From a virus (taxonomy: Duplodnaviria; Heunggongvirae; Uroviricota; Caudoviricetes): 22,725 bases of DNA. The notes beneath the pieces were generated by a model. It saw only the letters and a program-made list of their open reading frames with translations, did not search any database and was not told the DNA's origin. The stretch is taken from the IMG/VR virus record IMGVR_UViG_2681813227_000023, positions 1 to 22,725 of that record; one strand, 5' to 3'. Shown piece by piece: positions 1 through 19,649 of the stretch (position 1 is the stretch's first letter; each line of letters opens with the position of its first letter). Position numbers and translations under genes: made by a program.

Positions 1-195
1 TTAATTATTCTGCTGATTTTCTTCCATCTCGGCTTCTGCCGCCAGTGATTCTATTTTATCTGCGAATATTGCTGACAGTGTTGCAAATTCAGCATCAGTG
101 ACAGCGGGAATTGGAACAAACCTGATCCCGCTGTGTGCAAGCATGTTTGCAGTTTCAAGGCATTTCCTTAAATCTGCTGGTGATGCCCTGTTCAT
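1..195 (-). CDS. Hypothetical small protein (64 aa), translationally coupled to the upstream methyltransferase
   Basis: ATG at 195..193 overlaps the methyltransferase TGA stop (194..192) as ATGA; own stop TAA at 3..1. The 104-aa version in the ORF track begins at a GTG inside the methyltransferase gene and is less likely. No recognisable motif. Confidence 0.4.
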   Translation of the reverse strand: MNRASPADLRKCLETANMLAHSGIRFVPIPAVTDAEFATLSAIFADKIESLAAEAEMEENQQNN

Positions 196-842
196 GCTGC
201 ACGCTCCCGCCCCTGATTGTCTGTTGGTGACAGCGGAGCATTGCTGAATGCATTTGTTAATCCGGCAATATCCAACGCGTATCCAGGGTGTAGTTGCACT
301 GCCGGGTCTTCGCACTGATTACCCCAAACATCGAAGCCATGAGACGACTGGCGGGCGAACAGTTCAATGCGAGAAACATCGCCTAACAATTGCACAAGTT
401 TTTCACGAACGATATCTGGTTTTCTTGAATGCTCAAGCCGCGGTGCGGTAAATGACTGAACGATCCCTGCATTAATGCGCGTAGGTAGTTTTCCCTTTAC
501 CGCAAACAGGCAATCTTCACTATTGGCGCGAGTCATGTGTCCCATACCCATAACCAGTTTATCTGGTTGTCGACTACCACATTTTATCCACGTGAAGCCC
601 TTCATGGTCATCAGACGGAATCCCCAGGCTTCAACAACTTTTAGTGCTTCGAGTGGTTGTGTTGGCACCCACCACATGGCCAACAGACAGTTTTTATCGG
701 CCAAGTCCCACACAGGAAGGCGGCAGATATCCAGCACACTCATAACCGGATATTTAAAACCTGCACCGCGATTACCATCTGCGGCTTTGTCCCGGTATAC
801 CCAGGGTGGATCTGCATAGATTAGTGTGTATTTCTTATTCAT
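192..842 (-). CDS. MT-A70 family DNA N6-adenine methyltransferase (216 aa)
   Basis: N-terminal MNKKYTLIYADPPWVY contains the DPPW catalytic motif typical of MT-A70/phage adenine methyltransferases. ATG at 842..840 preceded by GGGGTGG; the ORF-track GTG at 854 is an upstream alternative. Confidence 0.8.
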   Translation of the reverse strand: MNKKYTLIYADPPWVYRDKAADGNRGAGFKYPVMSVLDICRLPVWDLADKNCLLAMWWVPTQPLEALKVVEAWGFRLMTMKGFTWIKCGSRQPDKLVMGMGHMTRANSEDCLFAVKGKLPTRINAGIVQSFTAPRLEHSRKPDIVREKLVQLLGDVSRIELFARQSSHGFDVWGNQCEDPAVQLHPGYALDIAGLTNAFSNAPLSPTDNQGRERAA

Positions 843-1134
843 AAACCACCCCACAACATCCTATGCCGCTATAGTCGCCACGGCGAAGGCCGTTACCTTT
901 TGTGATACATTGGTCCCTGCGAACCGCGATCCTTGCACGCTCAACATCACCAGAAGCAACATCCATACACTGAAGCCAAAGGTGGGCGGCAATGCGGAAC
1001 TGCCCTTTTTTCTCTCTTTCAATCGCGCGTTTTTCGATCTCTATCGCCGCAGGAGTAACGGCAACAACCTTTGAAGGGCTGCGCATTGAAACCTTATTCA
1101 TGTGATATTTTTCAAGTCGGCTTAACTTTCTCAC
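835..1134 (-). CDS. Hypothetical protein (99 aa from GTG at 1134; 89 aa if ATG at 1101)
   Basis: Open frame whose TAA stop (837..835) overlaps the methyltransferase start by 8 nt in another frame. GAGAGGG lies about 9 nt upstream of the GTG. No recognisable domain. Confidence 0.35.
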   Translation of the reverse strand: MRKLSRLEKYHMNKVSMRSPSKVVAVTPAAIEIEKRAIEREKKGQFRIAAHLWLQCMDVASGDVERARIAVRRDQCITKGNGLRRGDYSGIGCCGVVYE

Positions 1135-1243
1135 TTAATCCAACCCTCTCTGAAAATTAATGCCAGCAGATAAAGCCATGCTGTAACAGAGGCCAGGAAT
1201 AAGTACCATCCTGACCATTTGCTCCAGTGCCTTAGCAGCGCAC

Positions 1244-1492
1244 TCATGCAGCGTTGCTCACGGGACGATATACACGTTGCTGAACAGGAGGTTTTTTACC
1301 CTGGAACTCTGCCGGGCTTGCTGCCTGACGTTCATCAAGCCAACGCTCAACTTCGTCACGGTTCCATGCGCAGCGTTTATCGGTGATATACCAGCGTTTA
1401 GGAAATTCCCCTGCGCGCTCCATACGGTCGATAGTGCTCCATGACAGTGGCACCACCGCCAGGAGTTCCTTCTTACCTAATGCACCTTTCAT
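1244..1492 (-). CDS. AlpA-family phage regulatory protein / excisionase-like HTH protein (82 aa)
   Basis: Sequence ...WSTIDRMERAGEFPKRWYITDKRCAWNRDEVERWLDER matches the AlpA/Xis-like winged-helix signature (K/R-G-EFP ... W..EV..WL). ATG at 1492 with AGAGAGG upstream. Confidence 0.7.
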   Translation of the reverse strand: MKGALGKKELLAVVPLSWSTIDRMERAGEFPKRWYITDKRCAWNRDEVERWLDERQAASPAEFQGKKPPVQQRVYRPVSNAA

Positions 1493-1541
1493 AAATACCT
1501 CTCTTGGTTGCAGTGCGGCGCGCGTGGCGCCGCGGTGGTGG

Positions 1542-2423
1542 TTACATAGATGTTTCGTTTAATTCTTCTCGACGAACGCTGTAAACATCGGTGGCTTTTG
1601 CCAGCAGTTCGTCATCATCTGAAAGTTTTTGTGCAATGTATTTGTAAGCCTTATCCAGTTCGGAGACAGTGCTGTAATTCATCGCTGCGCTGGTAAAGGC
1701 CATCAGCATTTCTTCTGGATCACGGCTATCCGCTTTACGCGTTTGCTCATCAGGCTTTTTCACTGTTTTAGCGTTGATCAGACTGTTCATTCCCGCAGCA
1801 GTGGTCGTTTGCGGAGTAATGTCTCGCTCAACGCGCGGTGCCGTTTCCTGTAATTCGTCAGGGGTGTAAACACCGAGAAGTACATCAGGAGCGTGCAGGC
1901 GAGCCCATCGTTTCGTGCAAAGATAGGCAAGCTGCTGGCGCGGATCCTGCTCCCACAATGGAGAGTTACGCACTCCGGCTTGCGCCATACTGATGGTAAG
2001 CTCACGGGGTTCTGCTTCTCCTTTAAGAACTGCTGACACAGTTACCGTCAGATTCGGTGATTTATCTGTTTTGCCGTTAACATTCGACCAGTCACCGCTC
2101 CAGCGATAATTCAGGCGTGTCGCTAGCAGGCTGGAAGAGGATACAACCGCGTTTACCAACTGTGCTTCGTAGCCTAACGTTCCGTTTACCACATGCGTTT
2201 TCTGCGCCACGGCGAAAGGGTTCATTCCCCACTGTGCCGCCTGCATGGTCACCGCCAGGCAATCGGCAGGTTTGCCTTCAAGATGTTTCGGCACAGTCGC
2301 TTTGCTTTGTGACATCAACTCCGCGAAACGCACCAGTTGATTCATGCCCTCGGGGCTGAAGATTGCCGCAGCAGTGCCTACAGTTGCGCCTGGTTGTGAT
2401 GTGATTGCGATATCATTGCTCAT
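1542..2423 (-). CDS. Single-strand annealing recombinase, Bet/RecT family (293 aa)
   Basis: WGMNPFAVAQKTHVVNGTLGYEAQL and a later ERDITP segment resemble lambda Bet (YGLNPW...GIVPVVGVDG; ERDITP). Start ATG overlaps the upstream exonuclease stop (ATGA). Confidence 0.75.
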   Translation of the reverse strand: MSNDIAITSQPGATVGTAAAIFSPEGMNQLVRFAELMSQSKATVPKHLEGKPADCLAVTMQAAQWGMNPFAVAQKTHVVNGTLGYEAQLVNAVVSSSSLLATRLNYRWSGDWSNVNGKTDKSPNLTVTVSAVLKGEAEPRELTISMAQAGVRNSPLWEQDPRQQLAYLCTKRWARLHAPDVLLGVYTPDELQETAPRVERDITPQTTTAAGMNSLINAKTVKKPDEQTRKADSRDPEEMLMAFTSAAMNYSTVSELDKAYKYIAQKLSDDDELLAKATDVYSVRREELNETSM

Positions 2424-3241
2424 ACGTACATATCCTGTTTACGTGCCCAGTCAGGGCGTTTAATAATTTCCACTCCGCCCCATTCATCGTTGATGCGGCA
2501 TTCGTGATAGGTATTCAGATCCCGGCGGAACAGAGCGTTCCCGGCATCGACATCTGGCGCATCCAGCTCGAACACGCGTACCGGATACCGACCACAATCA
2601 ATGCTTTCGCTCACGGCAAGAAAGAAAAAACCATGCGGCTGACCAGTAACCCTCATTGCGCCTTCGCGGTACATTGCGTCCTGCACGTGGTAGCGGAATT
2701 CCTCGATGTGACGTGCAAAACGGTCCATATCTGCAACCTTTTTCACGTCGACGATCACGTTGTGCTCGTTCAGCCATTTGTCTGGACGAATTCGGCACAA
2801 CTCACCCGTCTCTTCATCGTTCCAGTACATTGATGCTTCGCAGTAACCAGGTGCTTCCAACATCCAGCGTGCCGCTGGATGAGCCATTGCGCTATCACGC
2901 ATCAGCTCCAGTTTTCGCCACTGCTCGACATCAAGTACCGTAATACCCATATCCGCCACATCACGAAGAAGCATTTCTTCGTCAGCTTTACCTTGTTTTG
3001 TCCGACGATCGAATTTCGGTGAAACGATGAAGCGTTTGTCGAATTCTCCAGGTTCCAGAAGCAGGCAGTGCAATGCGGTTCCCATATCCAGTGCAGACTT
3101 TTTCTCTTCGTCTTCTGGTGCTGCCTGAACCCATTTAAGAAGCGCCGGATTCTTGGCAACCATGTCCAGTTGCGACTTACTCACGCCGTCACCTGCGTGG
3201 TAGTCTTCGTTGCTGATGTCGAAATAAATTCCCGGTTTCAT
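2420..3241 (-). CDS. PD-(D/E)XK exonuclease, RecE C-terminal-domain-like / exonuclease VIII-like (273 aa)
   Basis: N-terminal GIYFDISNEDYHAGDG and a D...VDVKK nuclease core (CRIRPDKWLNEHNVIVDVKKV). Sits directly upstream of and coupled to the Bet/RecT gene, the usual exo plus annealase pairing. Confidence 0.7.
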   Translation of the reverse strand: MKPGIYFDISNEDYHAGDGVSKSQLDMVAKNPALLKWVQAAPEDEEKKSALDMGTALHCLLLEPGEFDKRFIVSPKFDRRTKQGKADEEMLLRDVADMGITVLDVEQWRKLELMRDSAMAHPAARWMLEAPGYCEASMYWNDEETGELCRIRPDKWLNEHNVIVDVKKVADMDRFARHIEEFRYHVQDAMYREGAMRVTGQPHGFFFLAVSESIDCGRYPVRVFELDAPDVDAGNALFRRDLNTYHECRINDEWGGVEIIKRPDWARKQDMYV

Positions 3242-3537
3242 GCCGCGTCCCTCTGCCCATCAAGCTGATCTGCCAGATCCCAGCGGGCGATAATTGCCAT
3301 TGCCTCGCGCCGATAGGCATCCATCAGTTCTTCGAACTCAGGGCTGTCTTTAGCAGCCTCCAGTACTTCCTGACGAACGCCTTTGCCTGTTACAACGTCG
3401 AAAGTTGAGGACAGTTGATGAAGTCGGATGCTCTCAATCAGTTCAACTTGTCGGTCATATAGCTGTTCTGACAGGCGGTAGTCCTTGTCGAATGCCAGCA
3501 TGATTTTTTGAAGATTTTTCTGCTGATTAACGTTCAT
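3238..3537 (-). CDS. Hypothetical early protein (99 aa)
   Basis: ATG at 3537..3535 (MNVNQQK...) with GGGAGGG 7-8 nt upstream; stop overlaps the exonuclease start (ATGA). No recognisable domain. Confidence 0.55.
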   Translation of the reverse strand: MNVNQQKNLQKIMLAFDKDYRLSEQLYDRQVELIESIRLHQLSSTFDVVTGKGVRQEVLEAAKDSPEFEELMDAYRREAMAIIARWDLADQLDGQRDAA

Positions 3538-3539
3538 TA

Positions 3540-3692
3540 TCAGCCCTCCCATATCTCGTTATCGTTGGCCACATCGCGAGCTTCTTTGCTGACGAAAGCC
3601 CACTTAATGCCTTCCTGTAAGGTGCGGAACTTCCAGCTCATGAATCCGCATGCAGTAACGCAGTACCAACCGTTGATGATTTTCCACTGCAT
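3540..3692 (-). CDS. Small ORF, 50 aa (MQWKIINGWYCVTACGFMSWKFRTLQEGIKWAFVSKEARDVANDNEIWEG), absent from the supplied ORF track
   Basis: Hand-translated: ATG 3692..3690, TGA 3542..3540. Its stop lies 2 nt before the ATG of the next gene (TGATAATG) and GAGGT lies 9 nt upstream of its start. First ORF downstream of the leftward operator pair. Confidence 0.35.
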   Translation of the reverse strand: MQWKIINGWYCVTACGFMSWKFRTLQEGIKWAFVSKEARDVANDNEIWEG

Positions 3693-3711
3693 AACTTGTT
3701 ACCTCGGTCTG

Positions 3712-3726
3712 TTACCGTTGAGGTAA
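3712..3726. promoter_or_regulatory. Operator-like palindrome TTACCgttgaGGTAA (leftward operator region, site 1)
   Basis: Perfect 5-bp inverted half-sites with 5-bp spacer; one of six copies in the window. An extra TTACC half-site lies at 3699..3703. Confidence 0.5.
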
Positions 3727-3774
3727 TAATTATGCGTATTTGGTTTGATGTCAATAGATATGAGTTAAAAAAAA

Positions 3775-3789
3775 TTACCCATTAGGTAA
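3775..3789. promoter_or_regulatory. Operator-like palindrome TTACCcattaGGTAA (leftward operator region, site 2)
   Basis: Same motif, 63 bp centre-to-centre from site 1, between the repressor-gene terminator and the first leftward ORF. Confidence 0.5.
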
Positions 3790-3802
3790 TAGTATAGGCA
3801 AT

Positions 3803-3846: not shown

Positions 3847-4431
3847 TTATTGTTTGTTTTTTTCGTTCTGGTTGATGACAAATTCAATGTAACTTTCGAT
3901 CTTTGCTTTCTCGGTTTCAGGTAACAATGCGTAGCGCGAGCGGTCATAGTTGATAGTTGCAGGGTCGTGCGGGTGAATCAGTAGTTCATATCCGTGACGC
4001 CCGAATGCGGATGCAACATTCTCCAGGGTGGAAATGGAAACGCTGACCTCATTGTTTAACAGGCGGCTGATTGTCACCTGGGCGACGCCGGATGCGCGGT
4101 GAAGTTTTCCCTGTGTTGAAAGGTCGCGGCTTTCGCTCATCCAGCGTTCCAGGTTGTGAGCCGCCAGCTGACCAATGTCGCTTGGGCCGACAGGCTGAAA
4201 ACCTTCCTGAGAAAGCGAGCGATCGATATCAAGCCAGTTACGGGGTTTATTGGCGGCAGCTTCAATTTTTCGCGCAACCTGGTCGCCGATAACCTTCTTG
4301 CCAAGAGCCCAGCGGTTTACCAGATTTGCCTGAGTTCCAAGTTTTTCTGCCATCCGCGTCTGAACACCATTGAATTCACGGTCGATCAAGTCGTTGAGAT
4401 TTTGCCTGCGGACGTCCTGGATACTTTTCAT
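3847..4431 (-). CDS. Putative immunity repressor with two HTH-like segments and no S24 peptidase domain (194 aa)
   Basis: HTH-like stretches QTRMAEKLGTQANLVNRW and VAQVTISRLLNNEVSVSISTLENVASAFG. Transcribed divergently from a Cro-like gene across an operator-bearing intergenic region. No G-S-M / Ser-Lys dyad autocleavage motif seen. Confidence 0.65.
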   Translation of the reverse strand: MKSIQDVRRQNLNDLIDREFNGVQTRMAEKLGTQANLVNRWALGKKVIGDQVARKIEAAANKPRNWLDIDRSLSQEGFQPVGPSDIGQLAAHNLERWMSESRDLSTQGKLHRASGVAQVTISRLLNNEVSVSISTLENVASAFGRHGYELLIHPHDPATINYDRSRYALLPETEKAKIESYIEFVINQNEKNKQ

Positions 4432-4486
4432 TTTCTGGAAAATCGCCTCATATATGAATCAGTAGATGATTCAATTTAAAGCAATA

Positions 4487-4501
4487 TTACCCAACAGGTA
4501 A
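4487..4501. promoter_or_regulatory. Operator-like palindrome TTACCcaacaGGTAA in the repressor/cro intergenic region
   Basis: Same motif as above; further GGTAA (4514..4518) and TTACC (4535..4539) half-sites follow. Confidence 0.5.
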
Positions 4502-4585
4502 ATGCACCCCACAGGTAACTATCCTTGATTTTTGTTACCTTATGGGTGAATATTTATTATCTGAAATAAATATCAGGCAATAGCT

Positions 4586-4966: not shown

Positions 4967-5167
4967 ATGGAAATCATTACACGTATTGATGCCGCAAAGC
5001 GCGGACTTAAACGCTACTACACCGGAAAACCATGTAAGCACGGACATGACAGTGAACGCTGGGTTTACAACGGACACTGTGTTGAGTGCACCATGGAATC
5101 AAACCGTCGTATCAGGGCAGAGATTAAGCAGATCATGATTAATTCCTCCCCACAACATTCAAGCTGA
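4967..5167 (+). CDS. Small putative zinc-binding protein (66 aa; C-x-H-G-H ... C-x-x-C), cII-position gene
   Basis: ATG at 4967 with AGGG 9 nt upstream (the ORF-track start at 4904 is TTG). KPCKHGH...HCVEC motif. Function unknown. Confidence 0.45.
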   Translation: MEIITRIDAAKRGLKRYYTGKPCKHGHDSERWVYNGHCVECTMESNRRIRAEIKQIMINSSPQHSS

Positions 5168-5182
5168 TAGCGGAGATTAATC

Positions 5183-5998
5183 ATGAGCAGACATGCAACA
5201 GATTGGGCCTGGGAGACAGATCCGGGTAGCTCATCATTAAAGCTCATACTGCTCTCGATGGCTGACAGAGCCGATGAATATAACCTCTGCTACCCCAGCA
5301 TAGAACGCCTCGTTAAAGACACTTGCCTGAATAAAAAAACCGTGCAGGCCGGGCTTATATCGCTCATGAAAATGGGGCTTATTTCAGATACCGGAGAGAG
5401 AAAGGGAGCGACAAAAAGAGTGCGGGTTTTCTCTCTTAATATAACCAAAAACGGGAACATTAAAGGCAACCGGGAGGGGGGCAATGAACCCGAAAACGGT
5501 AATGTTACCGAAAACGGGAATATACCCAAAAACGGGATGTTGAATGATCCCAAAAACGGGATGTTGAATGATCCCAAAAACGGGATCCAGAACCAGTCAT
5601 ATAACCAGTCATTTAACCAAGAGAGGGAGAGCAGGACAAAAAGCGGGGATTCTGTGCCTCATGACCCCGGAGCAAACAACGCCGTGATGAATAACTTTGT
5701 TCCTCCTGGTGGGCCAGGGCAATTAGGCAAATTTGTCATGCATGAACAATGGCAGCCATCAGATGACTTTCTTCGGAAAAGCTCATTGCAGGGGATCTAC
5801 CTGGACAGTCTGCCAACGGCACAGGAACTTGCAGAGTTCAGAATTTACTGGATGGCTGAGGGTAAGGCATACCATCAGGCACAGTGGGAGCAGAAGCTGG
5901 CAAGGCGGCTGCAGATTAGCAGACAGAAGCAATCAACATTACCTGATAACAACGTTCCGCACTGGAACAGCCCTGAAGCATGGGAGGATTTCTTGTGA
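5183..5998 (+). CDS. Replication initiator (lambda O-like role): N-terminal winged-helix, internal iteron-encoded repeats, DnaT-like C-terminus (271 aa)
   Basis: N-terminal ...LKLILLSMADRADEYNLCYPSIERLVKDTCLNKKTVQAGLISL resembles phage replisome-organiser HTH domains. Central low-complexity KNG-repeat region is encoded by DNA iterons. GGAG SD before ATG 5183. Sits directly upstream of the P-like gene. Confidence 0.7.
   Translation: MSRHATDWAWETDPGSSSLKLILLSMADRADEYNLCYPSIERLVKDTCLNKKTVQAGLISLMKMGLISDTGERKGATKRVRVFSLNITKNGNIKGNREGGNEPENGNVTENGNIPKNGMLNDPKNGMLNDPKNGIQNQSYNQSFNQERESRTKSGDSVPHDPGANNAVMNNFVPPGGPGQLGKFVMHEQWQPSDDFLRKSSLQGIYLDSLPTAQELAEFRIYWMAEGKAYHQAQWEQKLARRLQISRQKQSTLPDNNVPHWNSPEAWEDFL
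5445..5586. repeat. Iteron array (six copies of approximately CC(C/A)AAAACGGGA) inside the initiator gene: candidate replication origin
   Basis: Copies at about 5445, 5489, 5507, 5525, 5548 and 5572, the last three within an almost exact 24-bp tandem repeat (atcccaaaaacgggatgttgaatg); further short AACCAGTCAT repeats follow. Confidence 0.6.
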
Positions 5999-6780
5999 AC
6001 AACGTTTTTACCGCGATACAAAACCGTGACGGAGAAGCCCTTTCTCGCATGTCAGGTTATGAGCATCAGTACGTCAACAATGACAATGTGGTGAACATGT
6101 CAGCAGAGAGGCTTGTTGATGCCCTTTTTAAACAGCTGAAACAACTGTTTCCGGCGGCAGTGGTAACCAACCTGAAGACGCCAGAGCAGGAAGTTGCTGC
6201 AAAACAGCAGTGGATTGCTGCGTTTGCCGAAGGGGGGATCCGAACCCGTGAACAGGTTTCTGCTGGTATGCGCCACGCCCGCGCCAGTGAATCTCCGTTC
6301 TGGCCGTCTCCAGGGCAATTTATCAAGTGGTGCAAAGACAGCAAGATGGTTCTTGGCGTCACCATTGACGATGTGATGGCGGAGTTTCACCGGTACAGCA
6401 AGGAAAAAAGTTTATATCCTGGTGGTCCCGAAAGATTCCCGTGGCGACATCCGGTTATGTACTGGGTCGTATGTGATACCCGCCGTGCAATGTATCAGCG
6501 CCAGCTTAGCGAGATTGAGGTTGAGAAACACGCGCGCAGGCTGCTCGATGATTGGGCGAAAAAGGTGGCTTCCGGACAGCAGATACCCGATCCGGTGATC
6601 AGCATACAGGCAAAGCCAGAGCCCATGAGTACGCCTCCGGACACAGGGAGAGACGTTTACCATCCACCAGGGCGAAGTTTCGGGTGCATGCCTAACGCCG
6701 CCACCCTTGGGGGAATAACACCGGCGCAGTGGCTGATGGAGGAATACAGGCGGGGAAAGGCGGCAGGATTTATCAAGTAA
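5980..6780 (+). CDS. Replication protein P-like helicase loader
   Basis: KQQWIAAFAEGGIRTREQVSAGMRHARASESPFWPSPGQFIKWCKD aligns with lambda P (RRQWVLAFRENGITTMEQVNAGMRVARRQNRPFLPSPGQFVAWCRE). Start is ATG 5980 or GTG 5995 (GTGA overlap with the initiator stop). Confidence 0.8.
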   Translation: MGGFLVNNVFTAIQNRDGEALSRMSGYEHQYVNNDNVVNMSAERLVDALFKQLKQLFPAAVVTNLKTPEQEVAAKQQWIAAFAEGGIRTREQVSAGMRHARASESPFWPSPGQFIKWCKDSKMVLGVTIDDVMAEFHRYSKEKSLYPGGPERFPWRHPVMYWVVCDTRRAMYQRQLSEIEVEKHARRLLDDWAKKVASGQQIPDPVISIQAKPEPMSTPPDTGRDVYHPPGRSFGCMPNAATLGGITPAQWLMEEYRRGKAAGFIK

Positions 6781-6817
6781 TACCAGCGCGATAGCGCATT
6801 TTTTTACGTCTCAATAA

Positions 6818-6832
6818 TTACCCATCAGGTAA
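6818..6832. promoter_or_regulatory. Operator-like palindrome TTACCcatcaGGTAA downstream of the P-like gene
   Basis: Same TTACC-N5-GGTAA motif, outside the immunity region. Confidence 0.45.
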
Positions 6833-6879
6833 CAAAACATTCTAAACTCTATTGATTTCGTGTCTTATGTGGTTTTTAA

Positions 6880-6894
6880 TTACCTTAGAGGTAA
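6880..6894. promoter_or_regulatory. Operator-like palindrome TTACCttagaGGTAA just upstream of the 6898 start codon
   Basis: Same motif, 62 bp from the 6818 site; its right arm overlaps the ribosome-binding region of the next gene. Confidence 0.45.
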
Positions 6895-6897
6895 ATC

Positions 6898-7251
6898 ATG
6901 AGAAAACAGATACAGGCTCTTGGTCGACTCAAAACAGGCCAGATGAACAAAACAGAATCTGCGTATTGCCAGCACCTTGAGCAGCGTAAACGTGCAGGGG
7001 AAATCGCCTGGTATCGATTCGAGGGTATCAAGTTGCGGTTAGCTGACAACTGCTTCCTGACTGTAGATTTTGCCGTGATGTTGGCTGACGGGCAGTTGGT
7101 GATGGTGGACGTTAAGGGAAGTAAGTCAGTCTTTACTGACGATGCGAGAGTCAAGATGAAGGTTGCGGCAGACAGCTATCCGTTTGTCTTTCAGGTTGCT
7201 TATCCAAAACCTAAAAAGCTCGGTGGTGGATGGGAGGTTGAGGAACTATGA
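6898..7251 (+). CDS. DUF1064-like phage protein (117 aa)
   Basis: Recalled resemblance to DUF1064 phage proteins (ESAYCQHLEQRKRAGEIAWYRFEGIKLRL...FLTVDFAVMLADGQLVMVDVKG). Stop overlaps the HNH gene start. Confidence 0.5.
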   Translation: MRKQIQALGRLKTGQMNKTESAYCQHLEQRKRAGEIAWYRFEGIKLRLADNCFLTVDFAVMLADGQLVMVDVKGSKSVFTDDARVKMKVAADSYPFVFQVAYPKPKKLGGGWEVEEL

Positions 7252-19325: not shown

Positions 19326-19649
19326 ATGGAACTCGTAAACCTCAAAACCGGCACTGACAGCTACCAGGATGAGAGCGGAGAAACCAGAACTCGCGATGAA
19401 TACCCGTGGGGGCTGTGCATCACTCTTAATAACGACACATTGAATAAGCTGAAGGCGCAACCTCAGGGCGTCGGAACAGAAGTGATGATAACTGCAAAGG
19501 CTGTTATTCGAGGCCTGTCTGCCAGAGAAACTGACGATGGTGTTAATCGCAGCGCCGATCTGCAGATCACTGATATGGCGATCGCTCCTGTTTCCGGGGA
19601 TGTAGAAAAATCAGCGGCTGAAACTCTGTACGGTAACGGAGGTGAGTGA
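19326..19649 (+). CDS. Hypothetical structural protein (107 aa) sharing a C-terminal SAAE(V/T)LYG motif with the scaffold protein
   Basis: ATG 19326 with AGGAG SD. C-terminus ...EKSAAETLYGNGGE versus scaffold ...QRSAAEVLYGK. Confidence 0.45.
   Translation: MELVNLKTGTDSYQDESGETRTRDEYPWGLCITLNNDTLNKLKAQPQGVGTEVMITAKAVIRGLSARETDDGVNRSADLQITDMAIAPVSGDVEKSAAETLYGNGGE

Follow-up and report, generated by a model that had tools for sequence, protein, structure and literature searches.

A probable replication origin inside the HTH_36 initiator gene of a phiV10-like prophage of Escherichia coli

Introduction

In phages lambda, P22 and L, the coding region of the initiator gene contains a set of iterons particular to each phage (PMC8022706), and iteron number varies, with four copies in lambda and six in Stx phages (PMC7466680). 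The four lambda iterons are annotated in the lambda record at nucleotides 349-433 of gene O, directly past the segment encoding the N-terminal domain. The phage L record carries a putative rep_origin at 31650-31726, which rests on the same kind of inference as the origin proposed here. A paper on iteron plasmid origins (PMC4081077) describes DUE 13-mers that are contacted by the Rep protein as single-stranded DNA, and an analogous winged-helix initiator.

We analyzed a 22,725-nt stretch of DNA (the window, meaning this whole stretch) in which an iteron array occupied a position equivalent to that of the lambda iterons. In both lambda and the window, the iterons share one orientation, contain internal dyads and are found midway along the initiator gene, where the linker is encoded; the N-terminal domain is the presumed binder, the C-terminal domain is taken to couple to the loader, and a P-family gene follows immediately 3'. 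The oriLambda type was represented by gene O of lambda and also by 434, 21, phi80 and Stx phages. A literature search found neither the iteron string nor an origin for Uetakeviruses; the original epsilon15 and phiV10 genome papers lay outside this search and could hold a prior mention.

Results

Gene neighborhood and initiator protein

Judged by its sequence, the window was a phiV10/epsilon15-like (Uetakevirus) prophage of E. coli. At least 80% of it was present in 325 of 5426 complete E. coli genomes, and the initiator gene was 97.5-99.9% identical to its counterparts in phages EC.W1-9, phiv142-3, PAS61 and phiV10. The local gene order began with a double-HTH repressor gene (3847-4431, - strand), followed by two small ORFs, the initiator gene (5183-5998, + strand, 271 aa), a helicase-loader gene of the lambda P family (5980-6780, + strand; Pfam Phage_lambda_P, E=1.5e-56) that overlapped the 3' end of the initiator gene, and a DUF1064 gene.

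The initiator comprised an N-terminal HTH_36 winged-helix domain (approximately aa 1-86; 5183-5440, + strand), a low-complexity linker of the (K/E)NG type that was rich in N, G and K (aa 87 to approximately 179), and a DnaT-like C-terminal domain (aa 180-265). The Pfam profile HTH_36 (PF13730) matched aa 18-67 with E=1.8e-10 and 40.9 bits, and the DnaT C-terminal profile (PF17948) matched aa 184-252 with E=1.2e-15 and 57.5 bits, the gathering cut-off being 25 in each case. All 126 representatives matched PF13730. Solved E. coli DnaT (PDB 9zbt chain D and 6aep chain A) matched the C-terminal domain with E=6.6e-21. The AlphaFold2 model, built from a near-identical alignment, was unusable (mean pLDDT 33.6), so that Pfam was the only source of the winged-helix assignment. 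The two domains, together with the lambda P homologue next to the gene, agreed with a preliminary description of this DNA, in which the gene had been called a replication initiator; its phiV10 RefSeq label is likewise 'replication initiation protein'.

Several other features of the window and its relatives were recorded. A 66-aa ORF directly 5' of the initiator gene (4967-5167, + strand) had a Cys/His-rich pattern and no Pfam match; its positional counterpart phiV10 p42 carries an annotation of similarity to epsilon15 p40. A 202-aa ORF (7248-7856, + strand) overlapped the DUF1064 gene at its stop, by 4 nt, and gave weak HNH_3 and zinc-finger matches. No gene is annotated at its position in phiV10 or the NRZ14408 prophage, and the ORF may represent an inserted free-standing HNH endonuclease. 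A tRNA-Arg gene (anticodon TCT; 14044-14120, - strand) was located between the terminase and portal regions and is also annotated in the NRZ14408 prophage. A phiV10-like repressor-initiator-P block was found near the record end in PP488543 (phage BP9; block at 1-3792) and PP350014 (phage PH444), a pair made up of a 138-kb Vequintavirus record and a 115-kb record; both look like chimeric assemblies or prophage contamination.

Iteron array in the window

When one mismatch was allowed, CCNAAAACGGGA had exactly six matches in the 22.7-kb window, all of them on the + strand and none outside the array; they started at 5445, 5490, 5508, 5526, 5550 and 5574, and the cores spanned 5445-5585. Dinucleotide-preserving shuffles of the window contained on average 0.36 matches and at most 2, and none of 100 shuffles reached six. 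The true repeat unit was approximately 24 nt in a repeat search, with spacings of 45, 18, 18, 24 and 24. Tandem Repeats Finder returned a 24-bp unit (2.6 copies, 100% identity, 5525-5586, score 124) and an 18-bp unit (2.8 copies, 5488-5537), which were the two top-scoring tandem arrays of the window.

All six iterons lay on the + strand. Iteron 1 (5437-5460; core CCAAAAACGGGA, 5445-5456) was an outlier, 45 bp from iteron 2 (5482-5505), whose core CCGAAAACGGTA (5490-5501) carried one mismatch. Iteron 3 (5500-5523) had the core CCGAAAACGGGA (5508-5519), and iteron 4 (5518-5541) shared the core of iteron 1 (5526-5537). Iterons 5 (5542-5565; GATCCCAAAAACGGGATG, core 5550-5561) and 6 (5566-5589; GATCCCAAAAACGGGATC, core 5574-5585) showed dyad symmetry about the A-tract in the form GATCCC-AAAAAC-GGGAT(C/G), with ATCCC/GGGAT arms in iteron 5 and 6-bp arms in iteron 6, the copy adjoining the 12-mers described below. 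Iteron 4 kept the right arm GGGAT with ACCC as its left arm, and the arms of iterons 1-3 were weaker. Across the family, the iteron matrix read Y-CC ... GG-R-A.

The array was placed between the HTH_36 (aa 18-67) and DnaT (aa 184-252) matches. The iterons were in frame, with CC filling the second and third positions of a Pro or Thr codon, and encoded (T/P)(K/E)NG. The preliminary description had reported six in-frame copies in the initiator gene that encode a KNG-rich linker, and the six + strand matches, set against 0.36 in shuffles, bore this out. Its coordinates for the array, 5445-5586, covered the iteron cores but missed the 12-mers, which reached approximately 5625.

Other candidate signals were examined around the array. 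Three GATC sites within 42 bp, in iterons 5 and 6, were rejected as a signal: they were incidental to the half-site, the window total was ordinary, a comparable triple occurred at 19557-19583, and Vibrio relatives lacked such sites. A promoter and terminator scan found nothing above chance. Two hairpin plus T-run sites on the - strand (5533-5576), which had the appearance of terminators, were a by-product of the dyad array: in each, an iteron's right arm and the left arm of the following iteron made up the hairpin, and the complement of the A-tract came after it. DnaA boxes (TTATCCACA-like, at most one mismatch) were absent within 1.5 kb of the iterons, the nearest being at 7200 and 7897. The cumulative GC-skew minimum at approximately 4.5-5.5 kb was discarded as origin evidence because it fell on the switch in divergent transcription and was therefore uninformative.

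Second element: 12-mers and a purine-rich run

Three tandem 12-mers on the + strand (AACCAGTCATAT, AACCAGTCATTT and the degenerate AACCAAGAGAGG; Tandem Repeats Finder) occupied 5591-5625. The word AACCAGTCAT occurred exactly twice in the window, at 5591 and 5603, and a third, degenerate copy, AACCAAGA, lay at 5615; these were the shorter repeats that had been noted after the iterons in the preliminary description. The AACCAGTCAT pair taken alone was not significant within the window; the 12-mers count as significant because they were conserved in relatives. There, two or three tandem 12/13-mers of the form wAGAAYC-N3-CA lay 3' of the last iteron, often followed by an A-rich run. AAYC-N3-CA was enriched 32 times in the 50 nt past the last iteron (70 loci). 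The first 12/13-mer stood at a fixed offset of +17 from the last iteron in 37 of these 70 loci, with a spacing of 12 or 13, and copies were found in more than one frame in 13 loci. The 12-mers at 5591-5625 are a candidate unwinding or ssDNA-contact segment.

A purine-rich run (AACCAAGAGAGGGAGAGCAGGACAAAAAGCGGGGAT, + strand), read directly from the sequence, followed at 5615-5650, a position equivalent to that of the A-rich, strand-asymmetric tract to the right of the lambda iterons. A-rich runs beside the iterons were present in several relatives. The segment beside the iterons was only 58-60% AT (57.5% for 5587-5626), and 30-40-nt segments there ranked at approximately the 90th-94th percentile when the window was scored for low helix stability. 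Less stable 40-mers were found elsewhere, at 4450, 4534, 6812 and 6873, which were far stronger AT-rich spots. A lambda-like, easily melted tract was thus not evident, since the flanking segment was 58-60% AT and its stability was not extreme.

Conservation of the iterons at the DNA level

In tblastn searches, the N-terminal domain and linker were common to phages of Edwardsiella, Vibrio and Acinetobacter and to other E. coli prophages, with differing C-termini. A comparative set of 85 loci was assembled from 80 loci on one-genome-per-species contigs plus phage loci; it covered Escherichia, Edwardsiella, Vibrio, Pseudoalteromonas, Marinomonas, Acinetobacter, Providencia, Yersinia, Enterobacter, Desulfovibrio-like and sphingomonad genomes. 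The cross-locus iteron motif was C-N-R-A-M-A-N-Y-GG, which is degenerate and uniquely registered. Within nucleotides 200-650 of the gene, this motif had 272 matches on the coding strand vs 12 on the other strand (85 loci, which are phylogenetically non-independent, many of the Acinetobacter loci being mutually related). Compared with the remaining 0.8 Mb of flanks, its density there was higher by a factor of 57, and a stricter iteron motif gave a 55-fold enrichment.

The matches were spread over the three reading frames (174, 54 and 44), and more than one frame was used in 52 of the 71 loci with at least two iteron copies. Depending on the frame, one DNA word encoded PKNG, (T/S)QKR(D/N) or VPKTE, often within a single protein. 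In GF-2 and PPompW, one copy (ACC CAA AAA CGG GAT) was read in another frame and encoded TQKRD/E, and one copy in Vibrio phage Her encoded DPKTE. Three consecutive iterons of Acinetobacter sp. ANC 3789 (locus L130, 2843-2900), 17-18 nt apart, were each read in a different frame, giving VPTMEQ, SQQWN and SNNGM in a single protein. At least three iteron-derived peptide motifs were found in 104 of 125 full-length representatives (50% identity), and at least two frames were used in 79 of the 125. Further, bases outside the search pattern were conserved in every frame: 83-94% of copies had A at -7 and -6. A peptide-level explanation cannot yield one word in all frames together with flanking bases that are independent of frame, indicating that the DNA is the conserved level: the iterons are conserved as DNA, not as peptide.

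Co-inheritance with the N-terminal domain

The array was inherited with the HTH_36 N-terminal domain across varied C-terminal domains (DnaT-like, lambda-O-C, Phg_2220_C and unassigned). The genes 3' of HTH_36 initiators varied as well and encoded lambda P, DnaC/IstB-like AAA+, primase-helicase or DnaB-like helicase proteins. No such array was found in the Uetakeviruses SPN1S, Tyrion and ZX5, which have a DnaT-like C-terminal domain with another N-terminal domain; only weak short repeats were seen there. In a subgroup whose N-terminal domain carries a 7-aa insertion, the iteron spacer was AACAAY/AACAGT in 73 of 76 copies. The spacer in other loci was AAAAAC/GAAAAC, and 6 of 187 copies were of the AAC type; these counts, too, come from phylogenetically non-independent loci. 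In these loci the iteron variant tracks the N-domain subfamily, as is required by the earlier claim that the DNA-binding specificity of the initiator is predictable, and this claim thereby gained support at the sequence level.

The initiator of Edwardsiella phage GF-2 (locus L004, 1501-2343) consisted of an HTH_36 N-terminal domain with three GATCCCAAAATTGGGAT iterons and 12-mers, followed by a lambda O C-terminal domain. From lambda O residue 156 on, the identity with lambda was 62% over 144 aa (E=2e-67). The crossover lay just past the 12-mers, and a lambda P gene followed. This layout indicates that the N-terminal domain, array and 12-mers substitute as a unit for the lambda N-terminal domain and ori. 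The description of the array as mirroring lambda ori in gene O held up, both in this swap and in a word that is kept across genera in three frames, on one strand and at one position.

By sequence, the initiator itself does not appear to belong to the lambda O family. The lambda O profile (PF04492, Phage_rep_O) did not match the N-terminal domain of the window even at E<=10 and matched only one of the 126 relatives (E=0.01). BLASTP of the initiator against lambda O returned nothing significant, and hhalign of the N-terminal domain against lambda O gave a probability of 18%, over the recognition helix and wing.

Variation among E. coli alleles

Among 78 near-identical prophage copies, 53 distinct arrays were observed, with 5-9 iterons and a mode of 6. 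One protein cluster had 11 iterons, so that copy number overall ranged from 5 to 11, in whole units, comparable to the difference between lambda (four) and Stx phages (six). Polymorphism was counted on 44 colinear E. coli alleles, in which 5 of 108 sites were segregating in the iteron cores and 12-mers, compared with 21 of 116 between and beside them (p=0.0016); polymorphism in the cores was lower than in the inter-core sequence, third-codon positions included. None of the 12 third-codon positions of the 12-mers was segregating. The most polymorphic stretch was 5615-5650 (10 of 35 sites), and an iteron-like word within it (5636-5650) was rejected as a seventh site for this reason; it is probably not functional. 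Two hotspots were seen: the gap between iterons 1 and 2 (5457-5489), where the peptide was REGG, LEGC, LDGC or REWS, and the iteron-like word of the purine run (5643-5649), which encoded TKSGD, TKTGD or TKNGD.

Discussion

The repeats of the window are conserved at the DNA level, are inherited with the N-terminal domain, and have been exchanged as a module with the lambda N-terminal domain and ori. We consider it very likely that approximately 5437-5650 is the replication origin of the phiV10-like prophage, built on the oriLambda-type plan. Binding, unwinding, helicase loading and origin firing at 5437-5650, which we infer, would proceed in the following way. The N-terminal HTH_36 domain would bind the six same-oriented iterons (consensus AAyrnT-CCC-AAAAAC-GGG-AT), probably as dimers on the ATCCC/GGGAT dyads, to give an O-some-like nucleoprotein complex. 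This complex would strain the neighboring 12-mer and purine-rich segment (5591-5650). The DnaT-like C-terminal domain may then engage a lambda-P-like loader carrying host DnaB, the exposed single strand, or both, leading to helicase loading. Since the linker is encoded by the very stretch that holds these sites, its peptide, (T/P)(K/E)NG, would be dictated by what the DNA requires and not the reverse.

A broader proposal can be offered only tentatively, and we regard it as doubtful. The N-terminal domain, iterons and 12/13-mers might together form one portable origin cassette, widespread among Proteobacteria and combined with at least four solutions for helicase recruitment. Its melt region would be, instead of a generic AT-rich tract, the sequence-specific wAGAAYC-N3-CA, 17 nt from the last iteron, read as ssDNA by the initiator or a host factor, and the half-sites held in common with lambda could stem from deep common ancestry rather than from convergence. 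The HTH_36 initiator N-domain family comprises 527 clusters at 50% identity (E<=1e-10).

Three other explanations of the array were weighed. It is extremely improbable that the repeats are only a low-complexity linker at the protein level, grown by replication slippage and without a cis-acting role of the DNA. Close relatives do differ by entire in-frame units, with copy numbers of 5 to 11, and an N/G/K-rich sequence is typical of disordered linkers. However, such a linker does not explain why one DNA word is read in three frames into the unrelated peptides PKNG, QKRD and PKTE, why flanking bases outside the pattern are conserved in any frame with a strand bias of 272 vs 12, or why polymorphism is lower in the cores than in the intervening sequence, at third-codon positions too. 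Binding by some other factor, either a host protein or the Cys/His-rich protein of 4967-5167, is very unlikely, as is a recombination hotspot at the module boundary. The array does sit exactly at the junction where N- and C-terminal domains are shuffled, and the 66-aa ORF upstream of the initiator has no assigned function; but the array and the HTH_36 N-terminal domain occur together in loci that lack the small ORF, whereas SPN1S has a 67-aa ORF directly 5' of its initiator gene (matched by position) and no array. The lack of a DnaA box within 1.5 kb also speaks against another binding factor.

The iterons could instead be initiator sites that serve regulation (autorepression, a roadblock in the replication operon, titration of the initiator or exclusion of related phages), with opening and helicase loading elsewhere, for example in the intergenic regions near 4450-4560 or 6810-6880, which are strongly AT-rich. 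The only moderate AT content of the tract beside the iterons and the less stable 40-mers at 4450, 4534, 6812 and 6873 would fit this arrangement, as would the known inhibition of phage by ectopic copies of lambda ori (PMC4488673, PMC3349717). We nevertheless judge it unlikely. The conserved 12/13-mers stand 17 nt from the last iteron, at an offset that is constant across genera, and travel with the module in the GF-2/lambda chimera, whereas in diverse loci the N-terminal domain is inherited without the flanking intergenic regions; further, the equivalent layout in lambda is an origin.

The array supplies phiV10/epsilon15-like prophages, which many E. coli genomes carry, with a probable origin and a predicted recognition sequence for their initiator. 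The prediction extends to the large HTH_36 initiator family in Vibrio, Acinetobacter, Edwardsiella and other genera, in whose records the gene is annotated only as 'primosomal protein', 'DnaT-like' or 'helix-turn-helix'. The iteron cores are a concrete target for recoding, and origin/initiator pairs matched to each other and differing in predicted specificity (spacers AAAAAC, AAAATT of the GF-2 type and AACAAY of the Acinetobacter type) could be used for orthogonal replicons. The array is also a clean natural case of a cis-acting DNA requirement that sets a protein linker, as PKNG, QKRD or PKTE by frame. The main interest lies in this unusually clear evidence that a cis site writes the linker and in the conserved 12/13-mer element that is not AT-rich; the concept of lambdoid phage replication is left unchanged by the origin reading.

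Compared with lambda, the iterons of the window share the ATCCC/GGGAT half-sites and the A-tract center with the lambda iterons (ATCCCTCAAAACGAGGGAT), and are 3 bp shorter between the half-sites. The N-terminal domain is HTH_36, not Phage_rep_O, the C-terminal domain is DnaT-like, not lambda O-C, and the flank is 58-60% AT with sequence-conserved 12/13-mers instead of a plain AT-rich tract. The gene 18 origins of P22 and phage L (the latter putative) resemble the window in having iterons inside a lambdoid initiator gene. However, gp18 of phage L is not an HTH_36 protein and has no profile similarity to the window initiator; the L iteron (TGTCCAACGGA) is followed by a strongly AT-rich tract, and gp18 has a DnaB-type helicase as its partner. 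E. coli DnaT (primosomal protein I) acts through its C-terminal domain in PriA-dependent replication restart, whereas the related domain of the window is fused to a predicted origin-binding domain and paired with a lambda-P-type loader. The iteron plasmids (RK2 oriV/TrfA, pPS10 and R6K) share with the window an iteron array adjoining short tandem 12/13-mers; by contrast, the window origin would lie inside the initiator ORF, has no DnaA boxes near it, and has 12/13-mers that are not AT-rich. The array is thus very probably a further example of the well-known lambda design in a different and widespread initiator family, and not a new kind of element.
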